From the sequence record PQ850622.1: a DNA stretch of 64,000 nucleotides; one strand, 5' to 3'. Of this stretch, positions 1 to 62,480 are shown piece after piece. Both the position numbers and the translations under genes were made by a program. This stretch comes from Escherichia phage OliverMaurmann_Bas86. The notes below the pieces were generated by a model. It worked only from the letters and a program-made list of their open reading frames with translations. It searched no databases and was not told the DNA's origin. Each line of letters opens with the position of its first letter. Position 1 is the stretch's first letter.

Positions 1-1619
1 TTGGTGTAACTCGTACTGGTATCAACTCTGATATCAAACAGTTTACGCAGAAGGTAACTTTCCAGCAACCTGTTACTGTTCCTGATGCTGTAGGTGATTA
101 TGATGCAGTTACACTGAGACAGCTTCGTAACAGTAGTGGAGGTTCTGGTGGTCCTACCATGAGCGGTATCTCCAACTTTGGTATTGGCGATTTCCATCTT
201 CGTGATAGTCGTGCTTTTATCCCAGCTTTTGAAGTTTTGTCTGACGGGCAGCTTCTGAATCGTGCTGACTACCCAGATCTGTGGGCTTATGCACAATTAT
301 TGTCACCTATAGAGGATTCAGAGTGGGTAGATGACATTTACCAACGAGGTAAATACTCTAAAGGAGATGGCTCCACTACTTTCCGTGTTCCAGACCGAAA
401 TGGTATTCAGCTTAACTCCCTTCCGGCGCTTTATGGACGAGGTGATGGTGGAGCTTCGGCTGCTAATGGTCTAATATTTGATGCTGCTGCTCCTAATATT
501 TATGGGGATATTGGTGGTGTTGTTGCTTATGGTCAGACTGGAGCTATCGCCAGAGGGCAGGAAGAAACGGCTCTCGCCCCTCAACCTAGCACTGGTAATG
601 GTGTCTTGAGGGTTAGTTTAAATGCCTCACTAGTCAGTCCTGTTTATGGTCGTTCCACTGATGAAATCCTAACCCGTAACTTTGTAGGCGTTTGGACTAT
701 TCGTGCGCATGGTGGTTTTACTGCTGCTAATACTTCTTGGTCAGTTATTAATAGTGATGCAAACCGTCCTGCTGGTGGAACTCGAGCAACTAGTGGTTCT
801 ATTATTGCTGAATATAAAATTGGTTCAGAAGTAGAGGCTTCTACTACGCTCCAAACTGATGCTTATATCGACGGAGCTTACTATGGGGTTATCAATGTTT
901 ATAATAAAACCAAAGGAGTTACCAAGCAACTATCTTTTGACGATTCTGGAACCCTGAACTCTGATAGATATGCTGCTCGGTTTGGGACATTGATGACTTG
1001 GAGCGAAACAGGAAGTCGCAGAGGTACTTTTTCTATAGACAACCAAGGGATAGGGACTAACTTCTCCTTCAACTCCATACTAAGTGCCTCTCAAGCAACT
1101 AGTGGGGGGTACAAAACTACCACCCATGTTGGCATGATTCACAACGATACTGGATCTTTTGCTGATTCCTGCTGGCATGTTGCAGGGGATGAAGACAACA
1201 AATACGGTTGTCGTTTAACCCTTAGACCAAGCAGGAATGAGATTTATTACTACACTTGGCAGCCCGGCTCCACTGGAACTTACACTCTTGCTATGAATCC
1301 TGTGTCAGATGAAAGGTTGAAACACAACATTCAAGACCTCTCGCCTGATGAAGCAATTCGTGCGATTAAAGGTTTGGACTTCAAATCGTTTGTGTACAAC
1401 AATGATAATCAAGGAAGAACTCGTCGTGGTATCATTGCACAGCAGGCAGAGAAAGTTGAACCTCTTTATGTTAAAACTCGTAAATTCCATGACAACGATG
1501 GGGTAGAGCAGGAACAGAAAGAGTTGGATGCAACTCCAATGCTTTTAGATACCATGCAGGTTGTTCAAGATCTGCTGAAGCGTATTGAAGTTCTAGAAGC
1601 GAAGTTAGCAGAGAAGTGA
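1..1619 (+). CDS. tail fibre / tailspike protein, C-terminal portion (5' end cut by window edge) with C-terminal intramolecular chaperone domain
   Basis: Frame of the 159..1619 ORF stays open back to position 1; C-terminus ERLKHNIQDLSPDEAIRAIKGLDFKSFVY...GIIAQQAEKVEPLYV matches the autocleaving chaperone (peptidase S74-like) module of phage tail fibres. Confidence 0.55.
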   Translation, partial: GVTRTGINSDIKQFTQKVTFQQPVTVPDAVGDYDAVTLRQLRNSSGGSGGPTMSGISNFGIGDFHLRDSRAFIPAFEVLSDGQLLNRADYPDLWAYAQLLSPIEDSEWVDDIYQRGKYSKGDGSTTFRVPDRNGIQLNSLPALYGRGDGGASAANGLIFDAAAPNIYGDIGGVVAYGQTGAIARGQEETALAPQPSTGNGVLRVSLNASLVSPVYGRSTDEILTRNFVGVWTIRAHGGFTAANTSWSVINSDANRPAGGTRATSGSIIAEYKIGSEVEASTTLQTDAYIDGAYYGVINVYNKTKGVTKQLSFDDSGTLNSDRYAARFGTLMTWSETGSRRGTFSIDNQGIGTNFSFNSILSASQATSGGYKTTTHVGMIHNDTGSFADSCWHVAGDEDNKYGCRLTLRPSRNEIYYYTWQPGSTGTYTLAMNPVSDERLKHNIQDLSPDEAIRAIKGLDFKSFVYNNDNQGRTRRGIIAQQAEKVEPLYVKTRKFHDNDGVEQEQKELDATPMLLDTMQVVQDLLKRIEVLEAKLAEK

Positions 1620-1622
1620 GAT

Positions 1623-1642
1623 AAGCCCCTTCGGGGGCTTTT
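1623..1642 (+). terminator. rho-independent terminator after tail fibre gene
   Basis: Hairpin AAGCCCC-TTCG-GGGGCTT followed by TT, immediately after stop at 1619. Confidence 0.5.
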
Positions 1643-1708
1643 AGGAGTGAAACTGGTGAATAAGTAATGAAACTACTATATCCAAAAGGAAAATGAAAGG
1701 AGAAGAAA

Positions 1709-1927
1709 ATGAAAATGATGAAACAGGTAACTTATGGTCTAGCTTGCTTAGGGACAGGTTTTGTGATTTCCACAGCAGTACCTGTAAATGCAGTAGGCTC
1801 TCATTCTATTATAGAAGCTCCTGTAGAGAAGCTTAGTTCTCAATGTAAACAAAGGACCATTCAAAATAATTTGGTTGTTATTTGCCCAGACGCTCAATCT
1901 TCAGCTCTGAGAAAAATTCTTCCTTAA
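1709..1927 (+). CDS. small membrane/secreted protein next to lysozyme (holin or spanin candidate)
   Basis: 72 aa, N-terminal hydrophobic segment VTYGLACLGTGFVISTAVPV, RBS AAAGGAGAAG upstream. Confidence 0.35.
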   Translation: MKMMKQVTYGLACLGTGFVISTAVPVNAVGSHSIIEAPVEKLSSQCKQRTIQNNLVVICPDAQSSALRKILP

Positions 1928-1960
1928 TTGACCTAAAATAACAACAAAAGGAGGTCAAAG

Positions 1961-2452
1961 ATGGACGCTATCGCATTGCCGCCTGTACAGATGAGCCTAA
2001 GTCCGGCTGGTATGGAGTTTATCATGAAGCATGAAGGCATGAGAACTAAAGCCTATAAAGACTCCGCTGGAATCTGGACTATATGTGTAGGGGCTACGCG
2101 CGATATGAATGGGTATCCAGTAAGACAAGGATTAACGTATTCTATAGAGGATTGTCTAGCTCTGCTAGATAGAGACACACAAGACTCTGTTCGTGCTACT
2201 CAGAAAAACATAAGAGTTCCTATGCTAGCTCATGAATTTGATGCTGTCACTTCTTTCAACTTTAATGTTGGTGGTGGTGCTTTGTCAGCTTCAAAACTTA
2301 GGAAAGTGATCAACGGAGATGTGAAGGGTGATGTTTACTCAGAGTTCTTACGTTGGGATAAGATAACTGTTAAAGGTGTAAAGCAGCGGAGTCCGGGACT
2401 TCACAATCGCAGGGTTGCAGAAGCAAATCTATACACTACAGGAAAATATTAA
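1961..2452 (+). CDS. lysozyme, glycoside hydrolase family 24 (T4-lysozyme-like)
   Basis: MKHEGMRTKAYKDSAGIWTICVGA gives the Glu..Asp..Thr catalytic spacing of T4 lysozyme; RBS AAAGGAGG. Confidence 0.8.
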   Translation: MDAIALPPVQMSLSPAGMEFIMKHEGMRTKAYKDSAGIWTICVGATRDMNGYPVRQGLTYSIEDCLALLDRDTQDSVRATQKNIRVPMLAHEFDAVTSFNFNVGGGALSASKLRKVINGDVKGDVYSEFLRWDKITVKGVKQRSPGLHNRRVAEANLYTTGKY

Positions 2453-2464
2453 TGGAGGTGCCTT

Positions 2465-3268
2465 TTGGCTATCGAAACAACTGCGGTAGTTACTACCGAT
2501 TTAAACCCCCTATACCCACGGGACAGGGACTACCTTTATGAAGGGGCTGCCCAGATACGACTGGTCAAACAAGTCTTAATTAACACTTTCCCTAACATCA
2601 CAGAGCCGGTTCAACTTGACTCAGATTCTTTCAACATCCTAGCAAACAAGGTCTCTTTTACTGGAGACTCTATGGACGTTGGTGGTTTGATGATTAAGAA
2701 CCTAACTCCGGGAACTGGTGATAAAGATGCTGTAACCAAAGGTCAGATGGAAGCTTTCATGTTGAATTGGATGCAAAATAAACTATACCGTATTGGTTCT
2801 TATTACATCACTGAGGAAGATATTAATCCGGGAGACTCCAGCTCTCTTGGCTTCGGTTCTTGGGCTAAAGTAACTGGTGTTGTTATGGGTACTGGTGTTG
2901 TTAACCCTGACGGTTCTGTTCCTAACGCCCAGCGTGTGGAATTCCAAGCAGGTGGTACAGGAGGTCGTGTATTCAACACAATCCGTGCTGATAATATGCC
3001 TCTTACTACAATCAATGGTTCTAGTTTCCAAGTCAGTTCTTATTCCCACTCGCACAACATCACGATGGGTCGAGGTGATGCTAGTGGTCACAATAGCAGC
3101 CCTAATTGGTATAGTCCGGGTGGTGGTTACACTCAGGTAACTGACACCAACACTCACTCCCACTCAATCACAGGTTCTGTTAGTTTTGGGCGTGATGATG
3201 TATCAAGACAACCTATCAACACTTTGCCGCCTTTCAGAGCAGCGCATATTTGGAGACGTATTAGCTAA
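2465..3268 (+). CDS. tail fibre-like protein with His-rich C-terminal repeats (TTG start)
   Basis: SD GGAGGTG 5 nt upstream of TTG; HSHSHNITMG...HSHSITG motifs resemble metal-binding HxH repeats of tail fibre tips. Confidence 0.4.
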   Translation: MAIETTAVVTTDLNPLYPRDRDYLYEGAAQIRLVKQVLINTFPNITEPVQLDSDSFNILANKVSFTGDSMDVGGLMIKNLTPGTGDKDAVTKGQMEAFMLNWMQNKLYRIGSYYITEEDINPGDSSSLGFGSWAKVTGVVMGTGVVNPDGSVPNAQRVEFQAGGTGGRVFNTIRADNMPLTTINGSSFQVSSYSHSHNITMGRGDASGHNSSPNWYSPGGGYTQVTDTNTHSHSITGSVSFGRDDVSRQPINTLPPFRAAHIWRRIS

Positions 3269-3277
3269 GGAGGAATC

Positions 3278-6200
3278 ATGGCGCTTTATCCAATAAAATC
3301 TTTAGGGGCTGTAGGGGTTATTGCTGACCAAGCTCCAACTGATTTAGCACCTAATGCTTTCACTAATGCTATCAATGCCCGCTTTGTAGAGCAAAGAGTT
3401 TTTAAGACGGGGGGCAATGCCCCTCTTTCTTATGTAGAAGAAGATAAAGAGATTACACCACTCTCTTTTATCTCAATGCCTTTTGACTACTACAGTGCAG
3501 GTAATAGCTTTCTGGTTGTTGGTACAGACAAAAAGCTATATAAGTTGACAGATGAAAGCTTGACAGATATCAGCCGTAAGGTTGCCACTGTCACAAAAAG
3601 AGCTTCTGCTTCTATTAAGATTTATCCGGTTGTTTCTCAGATTGTTCCTAAAGAGACTTCCATTTCAATGAATTTCAACCAAACTAAAACTTTGGAAGTT
3701 TCTGTTCTTCCGGAAGATGCTAATAATACATCTCTGGTTTGGGAAGTCAGTAATTCCTCTTATGGTAAGGTAGAGGTTGATCCTAGTAATCCTAAAATTG
3801 CAACTCTAACTTCTTATGAAAGAGAGGGGAATTTAGTAGTCACTGTATCAACAGCCGATGAATCTATCAGCGCTCAGATTGCAGTAAACATTATAGATGG
3901 TGATTCTGGTATCTTCTTAAGCCAAGACACAATAACCGTTCGTAAAGGTGGTAACACTACAATAACTGCTGTTACTGGAAAAACCCCTGTAACTTGGACT
4001 TCTAGTAACAATTCAATCCTCTCCATCACACCGAACACTAACACACTAACGGCATCCTTATTTGCAAATGGAGAAGGCAGTGTTACTGTAACAGCGGATA
4101 ATGGCGTGAAGAGTGCTTCGTGCCAAGTTAATGTTATACCACAGATTGACAGCATCACTCTAAGTCAGACTGATGTCCAAATGAGCAGAGGTACTCAGTA
4201 CGTCCTGACTGCTACAGTTAATCCTTCAGATGCTCCTAATAAGACGATAACTTGGACTTCCTCTAACCCTAATATTGCTACAGTTTCCGGAAACAGTACA
4301 GAAGCAGTAATCACTGGACTACTTGCTGGGTTTACTGAAATCACAGCTGTTACCCAAGAAGGAAATAGAGCAGCAACTTGTACGGTAAGGGTAGACCTAG
4401 GTGGAAGAATGATGCGAACTTCTGCAATGTCTTTTTCGGAACCTATGGTTAAGGAGGTACAGTCAGAGGTTGACAATACCTATGCCCCTGCTGAAACAGA
4501 AGAGGTTTTGTATTTTGTAAGTGAGCCTTCTGGTATAGACACTTCAGGTATGTACGAAGGGAACAACTTCTACGACTACTCAAACGTCAATGACATGGAA
4601 GGTTTTGCACGGGCTGCACTTTTGGCTAACGATGCTCCTTTACAGTCGCTCTCTTTAGATATTATTAATGCATCCCTTGATGTTGGAGAAGACATTGTAA
4701 TCACAGCTAATGCTTTACCTGAGGGAGAGTATTTCTACCAGTGGACAGTAGACAAAGCAGGTTATGTTTCAACTACATCTACTACTGGAAAATCTCTAAA
4801 ACTGACAGCTATTCGTAAAGGTGAGATCAAAGTTACTTGTACTGCTAGTCAAATGACTCAGAAAGATTATGATGCTTTTGACGACTATCCTTGGTATCAC
4901 ACCATAATCTCTAACTGTGCAGTGGCTACCACTCATTATGAAACACCACAGGTCAAAGAGTTTGAATCTGAGTATTTCGTAGATCTTCCGGGATGGGGTG
5001 AGCAAACAGTCGTTGATAATGATGGCAATCCTTCTGTTAAGAAATTTAACTGGAAGTGTGAGCGTATTCGTGCATTCAACAACAGACTTTTTGCTCTGAA
5101 TATGAGGGAATCTAATGCATCTGGTGTAACTACTCACTACCCTCTAAGACTTCGGTGGTCGAATTTCGCTAACGAAAACAAAGCTCCATCTCTTTGGGAT
5201 GATTATGCTTATGATCGTTTAACAACTTCAGACCTATCAGCAAACATTGTTGGTCAAACTGAGGCTTTGGAAAATGGGTACGCTGGGTATATAGATTTAG
5301 CAGATTCTAACGGAAGTTTGATTGATGTACTTCCTCTGAAAGATTACCTTTTTGTTTACACGGAGTTCGAAACCTACATTGGTTCTCCAACCAATAACAC
5401 ATATCAGCCCCTTATGTTTAAGAAGCTGTTTAATGACTCTGGCATACTTGCTCCTGAGTGTGCAGTTGAAGTCGAAGGTGGACACTTCGTAGTAACTCAA
5501 AATGATGTGATCTTACATAATGGTGCATCTAAAAAATCTATAGCATCTAACCGAGTCAAGAATCTTCTCATTAATGAGATCTGTCTAGTAAACCCTCTAG
5601 CTACTAGAGTTCACCTACACCAAGACAAGAAAGAGGTTTGGGTTTTATATGTAGGTCCGGGAGAGCCTAAAGAGAGTTTTGCTTGTAATAAAGCCGCTGT
5701 TTGGAATTATGAGTTTGACACTTGGTCTTTCCGTACAATACCATATGCTCAGTGTATTGGGTTAGTCGATCCACCAGTTCTTGAGAGAGGTCCAATCTGG
5801 GCAGATTTTCAAGAGATCACTTGGGATGATCCCTCTATTAACCAATTAGTCTGGAGAAAGGATGCTAATAACTTCCGTCAAAGGATTACAATAGTTGGCT
5901 CTTTCCTGAAGGGATTCTATCAAGTGGATGTTGGTGCTCTGGACTACATCTATGATAGAACCAATGATAGGATTATAGAAAAACCTTTAGAAATGAGGCT
6001 AGAAAGAACTGGTATTGATTTTGATAATGTCACTAATGAGTGGAATCAAAAACATATTAATAGATTTAGACCTCAAGTTACTGGTACAGGTACTTATACT
6101 TTTGAAGTCGGTGGAAGTCAATTCTCAAACGAGTATGGACACAATCACTCAACTAAAGAGTTTAGGGTAGGCTCAGATCGTCATGTATCCGTGAGACTGA

Positions 6201-56927: not shown

Positions 56928-57839
56928 TTATGCTGCCAGTTGGCGTGCCGCCATAATCTCGGCAGCTTTGCGTAACACTTCCTCTTCTTCCTGCGCAGCT
57001 TTCTCATTAGCTTTGACAGTTGAAGCGTTTGAGATACGACCGCGAAGGTTAGACAATTTTTCAGTCATTTCATTGATCACCTTTTCCATTTCATCGGCGT
57101 ACGAGTCCAGAGATTCAAGCTCTTTAGTTGAGGCATTAATCAGGTAGTCATCGCTGATAGAAACAGTTGAAGCGGTTACTTTCTTAAGGAGTGAATCGAA
57201 AGTTTTCTTAACTTTGCCTACTTCTTCACTCAATGCGATAGTATTGTCAGAAGATGCGCCGTTGCGTTCATCTGCCAGTAGTGCCGCTTCAATACGGATT
57301 GCAGCCAGACGGTCAACCAGTGCATAAATATCCTGATTAAAGTTTTCGTTAACCTTCTGGTTGATCTGGTTTGCTACCGGAACATTGTCGTTGCAACCTT
57401 TGTAGAATGCTGGGTTATCAACCTGCACGTCTTCACCTTTAGCAAAGCGTTCAAAGGAATTAGACCAGCGGGCGCGGTTTTGTTCCATTTTGGCCTTAAC
57501 TTGTTCCGGTTTAGCATCCTCTTTCGCTTTCGCTTCACCTTCCAGATTAATCCATTTCTTTTTACCGTTCGCCCCGTCGCTGTTGTACTTGATCGGGGTT
57601 AAGAAAGAGATGGCAACCGCAATCACGTCTAAGTCACGATAACGCTCAGTTAACAAGAAATCAACCGCCGCCTGCAATACATCCAGTTTCTTACCGTTGG
57701 TGCGGAAGTGCTGCAAATGGCCTAACAGGAAGTTAGAAACATCTTGTTTGATTGCCGCGTTGTTGCTACGAATGTTGTTAGCCAGTGCATTAAAGCCGGA
57801 TTCGTTAACCAGATTAAAAACTTTAGCCATGATATTCAC
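56928..57839 (-). CDS. hypothetical protein (first gene downstream of the non-coding repeat region)
   Basis: 303 aa; sequence looks more GC-rich than the surrounding phage DNA by eye. Confidence 0.4.
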   Translation of the reverse strand: MNIMAKVFNLVNESGFNALANNIRSNNAAIKQDVSNFLLGHLQHFRTNGKKLDVLQAAVDFLLTERYRDLDVIAVAISFLTPIKYNSDGANGKKKWINLEGEAKAKEDAKPEQVKAKMEQNRARWSNSFERFAKGEDVQVDNPAFYKGCNDNVPVANQINQKVNENFNQDIYALVDRLAAIRIEAALLADERNGASSDNTIALSEEVGKVKKTFDSLLKKVTASTVSISDDYLINASTKELESLDSYADEMEKVINEMTEKLSNLRGRISNASTVKANEKAAQEEEEVLRKAAEIMAARQLAA

Positions 57840-57898
57840 CTTTCAATTGTAAGGGCACTATGCCCCCGCTCTCTATGAGCTTTTTAAGTCACTATTGA

Positions 57899-57938
57899 CT
57901 TATCAATAATCACTCAATATCAAGTAATTATTGATAAG
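57899..57938. promoter_or_regulatory. perfect 12-bp inverted repeat CTTATCAATAAT / ATTATTGATAAG separated by 16 nt
   Basis: Read directly; lies in a non-coding region. Confidence 0.4.
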
Positions 57939-58644
57939 CGAGGCGGTCTTATCAGGAGTTAACCTTGCCGCCTCCTTATCCGTGATGTTTCATCTGGTAT
58001 CTTTAATTAGTCGCTATAAATAAAGCCGACCTGATAGCGATGATCAATCATCACAATAAGGCAGTGCGTCCGACTCTATTTAATTACTTTATCGTAACCG
58101 TCGGCAATATCGTCTACTTTGCTTTCGCTCCCGCCTATCCTTTTGTACTAACTCTCAATCGCTAACCATCGCCCACTACGGGAGGTTATTGCGAAAGAGT
58201 CATTAGCCGTCTAATGCATTGACGTTTTATATCTTTCAGCAGGTTTACTACATAAACTGATTATGTACGCCATCAATAGTGGCCTCAAATCATTCACATC
58301 GTAAACGTTCACACTAAACCTTATTGTTAAATAGCAATTTGCCACTTTTTAACCATTCACCGCCGCCCCCAATTGGGCGTTAATTCGTCGGATTTGCCTA
58401 CCCTGATAAACTTCTTTCACTGTAGCACCTTGTTAGCGATGGCCGCCGCTACCCTTTAACCGTGGGCGATTAGTTTAGGCCGTTGCGTGTACTCAATGAA
58501 TCCGTTTTATCAGTGGTGACGTTTCCAGTTAAGGGATTGTAAAAACTGTTTACCCTGATAATTTAGGGAGTCTTACGCCGTTTTATCTGGTATGTTTTCC
58601 GATGGTTATTATCATCCAACATATTCAACCGATATAGGAGAATG

Positions 58645-59440
58645 TTTAAATTGTTAAAGAGCGGTAAATCTATCAGTGTGCTTTCTCACACTATGCAACT
58701 GTTAGCCGTTGTTACGCTTTTCTTAAGCGGTGAATTGCTTAAGTGTGCTCATTATGAATCATGCTGTTTTAGCTGTCAACCGCTTTTTTAATCTTTTTCG
58801 TCGTTCCCTTTATTGGGAGGATATATCAATCAGCTATATTTGATTGAAGATTAAGCGGTAAGGCTTAACTCACGATTCATATTTTTAAAGAGCGGTGTTT
58901 CTTACTGCTTGGTGAACATTCTATCAGAGTGTTCACCTTGTCAACTCTTTTTATCATCTTCTTTTATTCTATTCCCTTATCTCGCTTGAATCTATGCGAA
59001 AGGGCAAGATGATAAATTGTTAAAGAGCGGGGCACTAAGTGCCGGATGTTTCAAGTCATCGCTGACCGTGTGAACATCTTATCATAGTGATTCGATGTGT
59101 CAACAACTATTTTTCGATTAATGCATCTTGATAAACTAGCGACCGTTAAGGCCGCTAACCTTACCTTAGTTCATACGTTTAAAGGTTAAATCTTTATCCG
59201 TACTTACCAGCGATAACACCGCAATAGCTTTGCCTTTATCGGCATCGGCTACCATCTCTTTTGCCTGCTGTAATGTACTACCGACTATTCTCATAATCAT
59301 GTTAGTAACGTTAATGCTAGTGCAAGTGATTTGCGTGTCTTTGCTTGAGAAGGTGTAGATGTTCATTGATAAATCCTCGTTATGGCATGGTTGAGAGTTT
59401 ATCAAGATACACTAATCGAATTATTAAAGAGCAAGGCTAA
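58645..59440 (-). repeat. dispersed direct repeats carrying TTAAAGAGCGG (+ strand) with adjacent sigma70-like -35/-10 hexamers on the - strand
   Basis: TTAAAGAGCGG at 58654, 58885, 59020 and a degenerate copy at 59424; - strand TTGACA-15nt-TAGAAT (58918-58944) and TTGACA-16nt-TAAGAT (59076-59103). Confidence 0.5.
59166..59405 (-). CDS. hypothetical protein
   Basis: 79 aa ORF inside the repeat region; may not be real. Confidence 0.2.
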   Translation of the reverse strand: MINSQPCHNEDLSMNIYTFSSKDTQITCTSINVTNMIMRIVGSTLQQAKEMVADADKGKAIAVLSLVSTDKDLTFKRMN

Positions 59441-59681
59441 ACATCTAGCCTATCAGGAGGTAACTTACTGCATCGCGTCCTGACAAGATTCAATATACAC
59501 TATCCTAAAACCGTTGCAAGCCTTTTTCTAAAATAATTTCACTTTCTTTTAGGTATAGAGGAACACGCGCACGAATAACATCAAGGGAGGAAGAAAACAA
59601 GCATTATAATCAAAAGCTAGGCATGTAGGAGGCGTTCTAACGAGATAAACAGGGGCAAGATGTGCAATCACCTTAGAAATG

Positions 59682-59725: not shown

Positions 59726-60052
59726 TTACGGATTGGTGCAAGTGCCGTTACCTGATGCTATTTCGTTCATCGACTCATCGAACAACGTCATGCTAGACCG
59801 CATCATGTGATCAATGGTGATTTGCTTGCCTGTTGTCTGATTGACCAGCATTGCAGACTTACTATCAACTATCTTGCTGTCGTAGTCGTTCAGGTCAATC
59901 AATATTGCCTTGCTGGACTTCTTGCCAGTGTCGTAGTTTTCCATTAGATAGGTGCATTGCAGACCATCTAAACTGGCCTCGTTGAATACGGCAGCATGTG
60001 ACACGGAAGAAACAGCGAACAAGGCAGCACATACAGCTAATTTAATTTTCAT
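59726..60052 (-). CDS. secreted/periplasmic protein with signal peptide
   Basis: MKIKLAVCAALFAVSSVSHA then A; SD GAGGT. Confidence 0.4.
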   Translation of the reverse strand: MKIKLAVCAALFAVSSVSHAAVFNEASLDGLQCTYLMENYDTGKKSSKAILIDLNDYDSKIVDSKSAMLVNQTTGKQITIDHMMRSSMTLFDESMNEIASGNGTCTNP

Positions 60053-61439: not shown

Positions 61440-62480
61440 TACAGAACGGGTAGCAGACCAACGGGATAGATAGATGGGTAAGACGTGCCGCATAGGTTAG
61501 CCAATGGGTAAGAAGCCTAACGAGGAAGGGGAAACGGGTAGGATATAATGTAAGTTAGTTACAGGTAACAGGTCAGACCATGCGGTGATAAATTACCAGT
61601 CAAATTCCCTACTCATCAAAAGAAAAAAGAAACGCTGAAAAAGAAAAGAATAAAAGAAAGAATAAAAATAATAACTAAAGTAAACAACTACCAGTCTAAA
61701 CATACATACATCAATAATCCACTCATGAATAATCACATAAGTTATTACATTCAAACTATGGGGGATGGTCATCAATGGTATAGTTTACATAGGTTATCAT
61801 TAATGTTCTTACTATTAATACCGGTTAGTTATAGTCTTCTATTAGTATGCCTGTACAGTGCTAGCCTTTCATCCCTTCTCAATATGAGTAAGAGAAATAC
61901 GGGTGGGAGAATACTGGTTAGATATACATGGGTATTAAATAGATGGCTTATATCAATGGGTAGGGTATTTATGGGTAGGCATACCTCTGATAGCAGGTAG
62001 GGCAAGGATTAGAGCTTAAAGGCTGATTGATTTCCTAAAGGCGATTGCATTCCCTATAACCCTTTTTTAAATGAGGACTCCCCCTTTTACCAAAACACGC
62101 TCGGAGGGGCTAGGTCCACTCGGTCAAATCAGAATTTTAAACTCTTATATATAACTATATGCCCCAACGTTAGTTGTGGATTTAAGAATAAGGAACTATT
62201 TTATGTGGAAGATTAAGTTACTACTTAAGCAATTCAAATGTAATCACGAGTACTATCCAATCCGGATATCAAGAGGTGATGAACGATTACACACTTATTA
62301 CAAGAGTACATGGAGATGTGCAGACTGTGGTAAGGTGAGGAATAGTAAATGGGTGGATAGGCCTTAATGTGAGGTGGACTTTATGGGTATGCCTTTATGA
62401 GATCCCCTTTACATCAGCGTACATGGGTTTATACATGGGTGGGCCTTTAGATGAGTACGCCTTTATGGGTTGATCACTCT
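61440..62480 (+). repeat. iteron-like array of ATGGGT(A/G) / GGGTA(A/G)G repeats flanking an A-rich tract
   Basis: At least ten same-orientation copies read by eye (e.g. near 61476, 61504, 61537, 61926, 61958, 61971, 62383, 62422, 62434, 62466); 61590-61720 is strongly A-rich. Confidence 0.5.
62203..62367 (+). CDS. small zinc-ribbon protein of the same family as the 52480-53018 cluster
   Basis: ATG at 62203 with AAGGAA upstream: MWKIKLLLKQFKCNHEYYP...YYKSTWRCADCGK. Confidence 0.35.
   Translation: MWKIKLLLKQFKCNHEYYPIRISRGDERLHTYYKSTWRCADCGKVRNSKWVDRP

Follow-up and report, generated by a model that had tools for sequence, protein, structure and literature searches.

In this study, we examined a 64,000-nt stretch of DNA from Escherichia phage OliverMaurmann_Bas86 (sequence record PQ850622.1), referred to below as the window, with a focus on the gene-free region at positions 57840 to 59165 and its surroundings. 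The minus strand of this region specifies a conserved structured RNA of ~0.9 kb, and four exact copies of boxA, the NusB/NusE-binding antitermination signal of Escherichia coli rRNA operons, are clustered in and just upstream of it on the same strand. We consider it probable, although far from certain, that the region constitutes an early transcription unit organized like an rrn operon, in which host Nus factors would be recruited by boxA to accompany the synthesis of a long RNA that is structured and untranslated.

The source phage is a phiEco32-like podophage of E. coli (Gordonclarkvirinae). Between positions 57700 and 59500, its sequence is 99.6% identical to that of Escherichia phage vB_EcoP-101114UKE3 (UKE3), and 97 phage records match this segment. 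The genes flanking 57840-59165 are on the minus strand, and the early and middle genes of phiEco32 are transcribed in the direction that corresponds to the minus strand here (PMC8948821). A gene-free gap of 1.3 to ~2 kb is found in every relative examined, and in phiEco32 it lies between genes 124 and 125. A previous reading of the window, made from its letters and here termed the sequence-only reading, had stated that, apart from a doubtful 79-aa one at its edge, no open reading frame (ORF) of 60 aa or more is listed in 57840-59165, and this was borne out, as the longest ORF on either strand between these positions comprises 49 aa. The region is noncoding. When the variable columns of the RNA block alignment were counted by codon phase, the numbers were 99, 105 and 112 (p=0.67), displaying no periodicity; the same test on the adjacent gene for a 300-aa protein gave 64, 45 and 220 (p=3e-37).

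The sequence-only reading had drawn attention to a motif, TTAAAGAGCGG, that occurs on the plus strand at 58654, 58885 and 59020, with ATTG directly before the copies at 58654 and 59020, and to a degenerate copy at 59424. We found the three exact copies and both ATTG sequences as described. The fourth copy (TTAAAGAGCAA) is also present, but it cannot be regarded as degenerate since it matches the boxA consensus exactly. That reading did not identify the motif as boxA, which becomes apparent on the transcribed minus strand, where it reads CGCTCTTTAACAA; our understanding of the region hinges on this identity. The number of 11-mers alone is within chance (3 found against 0.88 expected, with 8 of 100 shuffles reaching 3). 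With the gammaproteobacterial boxA consensus GYTCTTTAANA (Baniulyte et al. 2017, PMC5725501), there are four exact matches in the 64 kb against 0.57 expected, a number that none of 100 shuffles reached, and all four are on the minus strand within 780 nt (58652-59432). We designate these boxA-0 to boxA-3 in the order of transcription.

The boxA copies are conserved among related phages. In 27 nonredundant relatives, 109 matches are in the sense orientation and 0 in the antisense orientation, with 3 to 5 copies per phage. Two copies are at a fixed distance from the downstream gene, at about -830 and -1060; boxA-2, ~1060 nt upstream of the ATG, keeps its position in all relatives, and boxA-3 is invariant in 28 sequences except at the N position of the consensus. 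The remaining copies are found in an indel-rich mosaic segment in which the promoter modules differ from phage to phage, each of them retaining a boxA, and copies are kept even where unrelated sequence has replaced the neighboring promoter modules. The cores of all four copies are predicted to be unpaired in minimum free energy (MFE) folds of their respective contexts, and that of boxA-3 is also unpaired in the consensus structure described below.

For comparison with the host, a 70-nt rrn leader sequence was searched for in 5,426 complete E. coli genomes. Every genome contained it with 100% identity, the median number of sites per genome being seven, and it is situated ~100 nt upstream of 16S rRNA. 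boxA-1, together with its 3' extension GCTCTTTAACAATTTATCA, shares a 19-nt identity with this leader. NusB:NusE binds rrn boxA with an affinity of 5-8 nM and lambda boxA with an affinity of 80-90 nM (PMC2800207). Judged by their sequences, the phage copies belong with the high-affinity boxA of rrn operons, and binding of NusB:NusE to them is likely because of this 19-nt identity with an element that is itself bound in the nanomolar range. A fifth boxA look-alike, TGCTATTTAACAA (58324-58336), was rejected and is probably not a functional boxA, because it has the wrong base at C4 and is located in a conserved paired hairpin, helix 23. In suhB boxA, the joint mutation C4T/T6C abolished SuhB recruitment (PMC5725501).

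boxA-1, boxA-2 and boxA-3 are situated 17 to 81 nt downstream of the predicted starts of strong promoters, and boxA-0 follows a weak candidate, P0, which comes shortly after the terminator that ends the preceding operon. The two minus-strand promoters proposed in the sequence-only reading, TTGACA-16-TAAGAT (59103-59076; P1) and TTGACA-15-TAGAAT (58944-58918; P2), were both recovered, and a stronger third one that it had overlooked, TTGACA-17-CATAAT (58779-58751; P3), matches 11 of 12 positions. Its suggestion that these are early promoters for host RNA polymerase is supported and was in fact already in the literature, as three sigma70 promoters have been published for this spacer in SU10 and phiEco32 (PMC4281155). 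P3 corresponds to the SU10 promoter at 73511 (entry ttgacagcgaaaacaacatgattcataat in Table S2 of that study), and the promoters must therefore be regarded as known; those of the present phage were predicted by pattern scan, and the published ones are those of SU10 and phiEco32. Both hexamers of P3 are invariant in 28 sequences. P1 is conserved at the SU7, PAS59, NC-B, Bas88 and TH34 loci, and SU10 and phiEco32 carry a different promoter, TTGACAAGCTAACACGATGTGTTAAGCT, in the place of P2 (SU10 Table S2).

Hairpins end 1, 2 and 12 nt 5' of three of the four boxA copies, so that the boxB-boxA order is found here. A similar arrangement is predicted for the E. coli rrn leader, in whose fold the boxB hairpin ends 3 nt before an unpaired boxA. 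In rrn nut-like sites, boxB precedes boxA, the reverse of the lambda order; assembly depends mainly on boxA, and boxB has been reported to be dispensable (PMC8632103). In 88 distinct contexts, the 32 nt upstream of boxA fold more stably than controls from the same region (mean, -5.8 versus -3.2 kcal/mol; p=7e-16). The hairpin before boxA-3, helix 8, has been changed on both sides at 3 of its 6 pairs, with 100% of the cells still paired. The hairpin before boxA-0 (AGGCUAGAUGUUUAGCCU) was also scored as terminator-like in the terminator scan.

Two further repeats are present around P2. The stem-loop that ends at its -35 hexamer exhibits compensatory changes, with CATCTT/AAGATG replaced by CGTCTT/AAGACG in four relatives. 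The sequence-only reading had also pointed to short hairpins near the promoters, and the inverted repeat GGTGAACA(N11)TGTTCACC at 58911-58937 (I16) is one such case. This repeat flanks the -10 hexamer in an operator-like manner, and the alternative P2 of phiEco32 and SU10 has an inverted repeat of its own at the same place (AGCTAACAC...GTGTTAAGCT). As transcripts from P2 contain only the right arm of the repeat at 58911-58937, a role at the DNA level, such as a repressor site, is possible.

Downstream of P3, a block extending from ~58750 to 57853 is as well conserved as the neighboring gene. Its 811-nt core is present at full length in 97 of 97 related records, with identities of 75.5 to 99.8%, and is unannotated in most of the listed records. 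An alignment of 28 sequences analyzed with RNAalifold gave a consensus fold of 255 predicted pairs in 43 helices. Among these, 78 pairs still pair despite changes on both sides, a number that was 38.7±3.4 in shuffled alignments and was reached by 0 of 500. When the partners were slid by 1 to 3 columns, only 5 to 9 such pairs remained. Paired cells amounted to 99.4% in the true alignment and 94.2% in the shuffles. A covariance search for structured RNA had been named as a check in the sequence-only reading. The alignment revealed 78 covarying pairs, and the covariance models of Rfam 15 (4,227 families) gave no match at E<=1 within 57.8-59.2 kb. Three weak Rfam matches elsewhere in 56.5-60.5 kb (E≈0.6-0.8) were dismissed as chance. 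ARAGORN detected neither tRNA nor tmRNA. A host-derived or prophage origin was considered for the RNA and rejected, as no similarity was found in the 5,426 E. coli genomes.

The consensus fold is that of the minus, transcribed strand. Folding of the single sequence does not distinguish the two strands, with z=-7.05 for the minus strand and -6.7 for its complement. As the complement folds about equally well singly, the strand was assigned on the basis of the alignment fold, whose RNAalifold energy is -234 kcal/mol on the transcribed strand versus -144 kcal/mol on the opposite strand, and on the basis of the intermediates at the 78 covarying pairs, among which G·U occurs 192 times and A·C 8 times. 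The block thus displays compensatory changes, strand-specific G·U intermediates and no coding signal, all of which characterize a conserved structured RNA. Among the possibilities raised in the sequence-only reading was a long structured leader or small RNAs, and this has received strong support, the RNA being far larger than had been envisaged.

Following boxA-3, ~0.8 kb of noncoding RNA carries the 78 covarying pairs. boxA-3 abuts the closing stem of a first large domain, and a second one is closed by a long-range stem of ~22 bp (helices 24-26). A series of hairpins follows, and 3' of these come a ribosome-binding site and then the ATG at 57830. Upstream of the two domains, the segment at 58753-58881 is transcribed only from P1 or P2, and the leaders of P1 and P2 transcripts are also structured, with compensatory changes. 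Several short sequences were noted in the RNA. The loop CAAGGUUAACUCCUGAUAAGA (57940-57974) is nearly invariant in the 28 sequences and contains the palindrome GUUAAC, so that a kissing loop is possible. CUGAUA(A/G) and its complement UAUCAG occur at least 6 times in the RNA and its leaders, and CCUCC/CUCCU, which resembles an anti-Shine-Dalgarno sequence, occurs at least 4 times in the RNA at 57853-58663.

The gene for the 300-aa protein follows the RNA with no terminator between them, and the two are predicted from this arrangement to be co-transcribed. The protein and the RNA co-occur in exactly the same 97 phage records. The protein has no Pfam match, and its AlphaFold2 model (predicted local distance difference test [pLDDT] score of 82) gave no informative fold match. 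RNA block and gene have discordant histories: the identity in the RNA block versus that in the gene is 92% versus 76% for phiEco32 and 78% versus 94% for PAS59, suggesting a recombination breakpoint near the start codon at 57830. Beyond the gene, a strong terminator-like hairpin is the likely end of the transcription unit. A scan of 50000-57400 gave 19 intrinsic-terminator-like hairpins, whereas 5.2 were expected; with few exceptions, they are on the transcribed minus strand and between small early genes. Several of them have (C)UUCG(G)-type loops (e.g., 53600-53579, 55415-55396 and 56910-56883), and the 19 could be terminators, RNA-stabilizing hairpins or processing sites.

More-distant relatives provided a test of the structure. 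Homologs of the 300-aa protein with 45 to 67% identity are encoded on long assembled contigs, and we examined five of these (L038 to L042; Logan/ENA contigs of 43 to 100 kb, viewed at positions 1-4500). Upstream of the gene, four of the five have a gene-free stretch of 2.7 to 3.4 kb, and in L038 the stretch is interrupted by two small called genes. Each contig harbors 2 or 3 exact boxA copies, all in the sense orientation, the last one 900 to 935 nt before the gene, and a profile search detected homology to the RNA in all five. As these contigs were not used to derive the structure, they constitute an out-of-sample test. In L041, 81% of the predicted pairs hold, with 50 double changes, 33 of which are new pair types, and in L042, 71% hold, with 20 new pair types; slid controls for the two gave 31 to 47%. 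A covariance model of the subdomain at 58128-58245 finds both L041 and L042 (E=8e-26 and 4e-9). The gene-free sequence of these contigs is located between divergent gene blocks, the gene on the opposite side being that of terminase in L039. The five contigs are previously undescribed and would be the most suitable sequences on which to build a structure-aware RNA alignment. Protein-pattern scans of viral contigs found 4 loci, and DNA-pattern scans found 5 in viral and 8 in metagenome contigs, all of them from close relatives.

The features of the locus are summarized in the following table.

Features of the boxA/structured RNA locus and its flanks, in the order of transcription (positions are those of the window)
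Feature	Position	Strand	Basis or remark
P0, weak sigma70-like candidate, TTGCAA-16-TATATT	59492..59519	-	pattern scan 9/12, scan alone
Hairpin AGGCUAGAUGUUUAGCCU, boxB-like position	59434..59451	-	fold; ends 1 nt before boxA-0; conserved in relatives
boxA-0, GCTCTTTAATA	59422..59432	-	exact consensus match; unpaired in MFE fold
Doubtful 66-aa ORF (79 aa counted from TTG start)	59166..59366	-	between boxA-0 and P1
P1 promoter, TTGACA-16-TAAGAT, TGn extended -10	59076..59103	-	pattern scan 10/12
Hairpin GGCACUUAGUGCC	59031..59043	-	fold; ends 2 nt before boxA-1
boxA-1, GCTCTTTAACA	59018..59028	-	exact consensus match
Conserved stem-loop UUUAUCAUCUU...AAGAUGAUAAA, ends at P2 -35	58950..59016	-	inverted repeat I14, 11/11 complementary
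P2 promoter, TTGACA-15-TAGAAT, TGn extended -10	58918..58944	-	sequence pattern
boxA-2, GCTCTTTAAAA	58883..58893	-	exact consensus match; ~17 nt from predicted P2 start
Structured segment, helices 2 and 3	58753..58881	-	between boxA-2 and P3; 4 double-change pairs
P3 promoter, TTGACA-17-CATAAT	58751..58779	-	pattern scan 11/12
Hairpin AGUGUG-AGAAAG-CACACU, helix 8, boxB-like position	58675..58692	-	ends 12 nt before boxA-3
boxA-3, GCTCTTTAACA	58652..58662	-	exact consensus match; abuts closing stem of domain I
RNA domain I, ~300 nt, helix 9 closing, helices 10-22 within	58348..58650	-	26 double-change pairs
Conserved hairpin helix 23 holding boxA look-alike TGCTATTTAACAA	58324..58347	-	paired in consensus and MFE folds
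RNA domain II, ~275 nt, helices 28-35 within	58053..58327	-	33 double-change pairs
3' hairpin series, helices 36-43, one loop (CAAGGUUAACUCCUGAUAAGA) nearly invariant	57853..58052	-	consensus fold
Gene for 300-aa protein	56928..57830	-	PHROG 13018 (unknown function)
Strong intrinsic-terminator-like hairpin, 12-bp stem and U-tract	56883..56910	-	likely transcription-unit end

Taken together, these observations are best accommodated by a unit that is built like the leader of an rrn operon. Host sigma70 RNA polymerase would read it on the minus strand from the tandem promoters P1, P2 and P3, with a possible contribution from P0. NusB and NusE (S10) would bind boxA on the nascent RNA and, with NusA, NusG and SuhB (and S4), would convert the polymerase to a termination-resistant, RNA-chaperoning complex. 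No N-like protein of the phage would be needed. This complex would transcribe an untranslated RNA of ~0.9 kb (from P3) to 1.25 kb (from P1), which would fold into the two large domains closed by long-range stems and the series of hairpins, and transcription would proceed into the 300-aa gene and end at the intrinsic terminator at 56910-56883. Our working view is that the folded RNA is the main product of the unit, either as a large noncoding RNA or as a regulatory leader made early, and that boxA is present because a long untranslated transcript needs the protection and folding assistance that rRNA receives. boxA has been reported to shield long untranslated CRISPR transcripts from Rho (2020, PMC7665894).

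This raises the further possibility that the phages produce a new class of large noncoding RNA in the manner of rRNA, with Nus factors acting as both antiterminator and folding chaperone, and that the RNA, possibly excised at the long-range stems, acts in trans while the host is being taken over; a decoy or scaffold role toward a host protein or defense system would be one example. We put this forward tentatively and with more doubt than confidence. The boxA copies might additionally drain Nus factors from host rRNA synthesis. This phage group has been reported to be unusually resistant to the defense systems tested.

A number of points weigh against an rrn-like unit or restrict its scope. The evidence consists of sequences and predicted folds, and, as the sequences are related to one another, the cell counts behind the covarying pairs exceed the number of independent events. 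No boxC-like GU-rich element (UGUGUGGG-like) was found 3' of any of the four boxA copies. In the three most diverged of the distant relatives, only 55 to 59% of the pairs hold in a sequence-based alignment, and the subdomain covariance model finds none of the three; either this part of the RNA has been replaced or it is past the reach of the alignment, and both boxA and the long leader have been retained there. In the distantly related Salmonella phage 7-11, which has since been assigned to another family, the early promoters have no boxA in their vicinity, and the RNA model gives no match. The feature is thus confined to phages of the phiEco32 group and their relatives from metagenomes.

The function assigned to boxA also involves assumptions. 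The RNA is highly structured, with a C/G ratio of 0.4 to 0.9 over most of its 3' half, and is not obviously a good substrate for Rho, so that a need for protection from Rho is assumed here. rrn-type complexes suppress intrinsic terminators poorly. Because of this, and because a strong intrinsic terminator ends the unit, boxA probably does not serve long-range read-through of the downstream hairpins. boxA-0 could act differently from the other copies, for example in a suhB-like manner, because P0 is weak and boxA-0 is ~56 nt before the doubtful 66-aa ORF.

The other explanations that we considered are less likely than an rrn-like unit. In antitermination of the lambda N type, a phage protein would bind the hairpins next to boxA and, together with Nus factors, bring about read-through of the early terminator-like hairpins. 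Hairpins indeed adjoin 3 of the 4 boxA copies, the 19 terminator-like hairpins (5.2 expected) lie downstream on the same strand, and the authors of the study on phage 7-11 proposed an undefined antitermination strategy for that phiEco32-related phage. Nevertheless, the hairpins here are 5' of boxA, whereas lambda boxB is 3' (PMC8632103), and their sequences differ among copies and among phages, so that they share no loop to which one protein could bind. The upstream ORFs do not encode a small arginine-rich protein, and no upstream early protein displays an arginine-rich, N-like N terminus. In addition, the boxA copies belong to the high-affinity rrn type, which is functional without N. We therefore regard an N-type mechanism as unlikely.

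It is also improbable that the boxA copies serve chiefly as a sponge that titrates NusB/NusE/SuhB off host rrn operons in the course of host shutoff, or as repressive elements like that of suhB. Multiple rrn-grade boxA copies behind strong promoters would suit a sponge. boxA can repress as well as antiterminate (PMC5725501), and the distance between boxA-0 and the ORF that follows it would be in line with repression. However, both proposals leave the conserved structured RNA unexplained, and a distance of more than 800 nt separates three of the four copies from the closest start codon, whereas suhB-type candidates were sought within 50 bp of a start codon (PMC5725501). Titration could in any case take place alongside an rrn-like unit, as the two are not mutually exclusive.

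A replication origin with a structured primer RNA, in which a folded transcript of the host polymerase would form an R-loop and prime phage DNA synthesis, is quite unlikely. Known cases for comparison are RNA II of ColE1 and transcription-activated phage origins, and a conserved noncoding region with tandem host promoters and selection on RNA structure has features of the RNA II type. The turning point of the GC skew is elsewhere, however, with the minimum of the cumulative skew at ~61.0-61.4 kb, at the genome end. Neither iteron-like tandem repeats nor an AT-rich unwinding element was found, and the RNA leads directly into a translated gene. To our knowledge, boxA has no role in primer formation.

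An ordinary early-promoter spacer, consisting only of tandem promoters for host RNA polymerase, with repeats and hairpins that are promoter associated or incidental, would agree with the three published sigma70 promoters in SU10 and phiEco32, with the strong matches in our promoter scans and with the chance-level count of the 11-mer. As a complete explanation, it is already contradicted: it does not account for ~0.9 kb beyond the last promoter that is conserved like the neighboring gene, for the 78 compensatory pairs, or for the bias of 109:0 with which a perfectly matching regulatory motif of the host favors one strand. We consider it very unlikely.

The proposal that the block hides small protein genes carries even less weight and is hardly credible. 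It derives from the annotation of UKE3, in which nine hypothetical proteins are called under 57700-59500, among them several ORFs of 30 to 49 aa, and from two stop-free stretches that recur among relatives. On the other hand, codon periodicity was detected nowhere in the block (p=0.67-0.88), PAS59 and NC-B have lost the start codon of the 49-aa plus-strand ORF, the ATG of a 16-aa ORF is inside covarying helix 11, and most of the listed records leave the block unannotated. We would advise annotators against small-ORF calls in this block. The 66-aa ORF upstream of P1 is perhaps not a gene either, as it lacks codon periodicity (p=0.31), has no Pfam or PHROG match, and is annotated as a 201-nt coding sequence in SU7 and PAS59 but is missing from the annotation of phiEco32.

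Finally, the sequence-only reading had suggested a genome terminus in case the source contig was circularly permuted. The idea that a terminus or a packaging site is exposed here in this way has virtually no chance of being correct. The window does cross the physical genome end, but the sequence homologous to the direct terminal repeats of phiEco32 and PAS59 is at 61665-62111, ~2.5 kb away, and the region lies 2.4 to 4.8 kb inside the right end in linear records. The internal position of this repeat homolog indicates that the source contig is circularly permuted or concatemeric. Between the RNA unit and the genome end, the 108-aa protein encoded at 59726-60052 is labeled "terminase" in several records and in PHROG 13168, a label that looks wrong because the protein has a signal-peptide-like N terminus and is located in the early operon.

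The promoters of this spacer are known, and the role of boxA and the large RNA family appear to be undescribed. Our literature search found no paper that pairs phiEco32 with boxA, and the papers on Kuravirus and Gordonclarkvirinae genomes and biology that we read contain no mention of a noncoding RNA, an antitermination signal or a conserved noncoding element at this site. In the study on phage 7-11, the antitermination strategy "remains to be defined," and the answer offered here applies only to the phiEco32 subgroup since phage 7-11 lacks boxA. Our results provide a concrete, testable hypothesis for a "spacer" of ~1-2 kb that is unannotated in most of the records examined. As the RNA is present in phages that grow on E. 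coli K-12 derivatives (BASEL phages Bas87 to Bas94), genetics and biochemistry should be straightforward. If our explanation is correct, a family of virulent coliphages has copied the design of the rrn leader, without an N-like protein, to make a large, conserved, folded RNA.

The closest known counterpart is the rrn leader of E. coli itself. Both have tandem strong sigma70 promoters and a consensus boxA (with up to 19 nt of identity), a hairpin just 5' of an unpaired boxA, and no apparent phage-specific factor, and in both, boxA is immediately followed by the 5' strand of a long-range stem enclosing a large, untranslated, structured domain. The phage unit differs in being phage encoded, in having four boxA copies, one per promoter, in place of one leader copy and one spacer copy, in its lack of boxC, and in its product, as the ~0.9-kb RNA has no rRNA similarity (neither Rfam nor E. 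coli gave a match) and precedes a protein gene.

Outside rRNA operons, the known examples of antitermination by a host-type boxA are provided by lambdoid phages (with N), suhB and CRISPR arrays. The CRISPR arrays resemble the present case in that a boxA precedes a transcript of unusual length that is not translated (PMC7665894), but their transcript is a repeat-spacer array processed by Cas proteins, whereas here it is a single large folded RNA of a virulent phage. The nut sites of lambda likewise are carried by phage early transcripts and provide boxA for host Nus factors. Lambda boxA, however, is off consensus and ~10-fold weaker and is followed by a 3' boxB that binds N; here, boxA is of the rrn type and is preceded by variable 5' hairpins, and neither a 3' boxB with a conserved loop nor an arginine-rich N was found. 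The boxA of suhB has the same consensus and is also located in a 5' untranslated region, but it is near the start codon and repressive (PMC5725501), in contrast to the position of three of the four copies here, >800 nt from a start codon.

With regard to the RNA itself, GOLLD and ROOL are large structured noncoding RNAs of phages and prophages with many covarying helices and unknown function. The RNA described here resembles them in its length of several hundred nucleotides, its many covarying helices and its association with phages. It is distinct from both, with no match among the 4,227 Rfam families, in that virulent coliphages carry it, always at the same location within the early region and linked to boxA and to the gene that follows. 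Very large structured RNAs are few in number among bacteria and their phages, and the present one is a further candidate.

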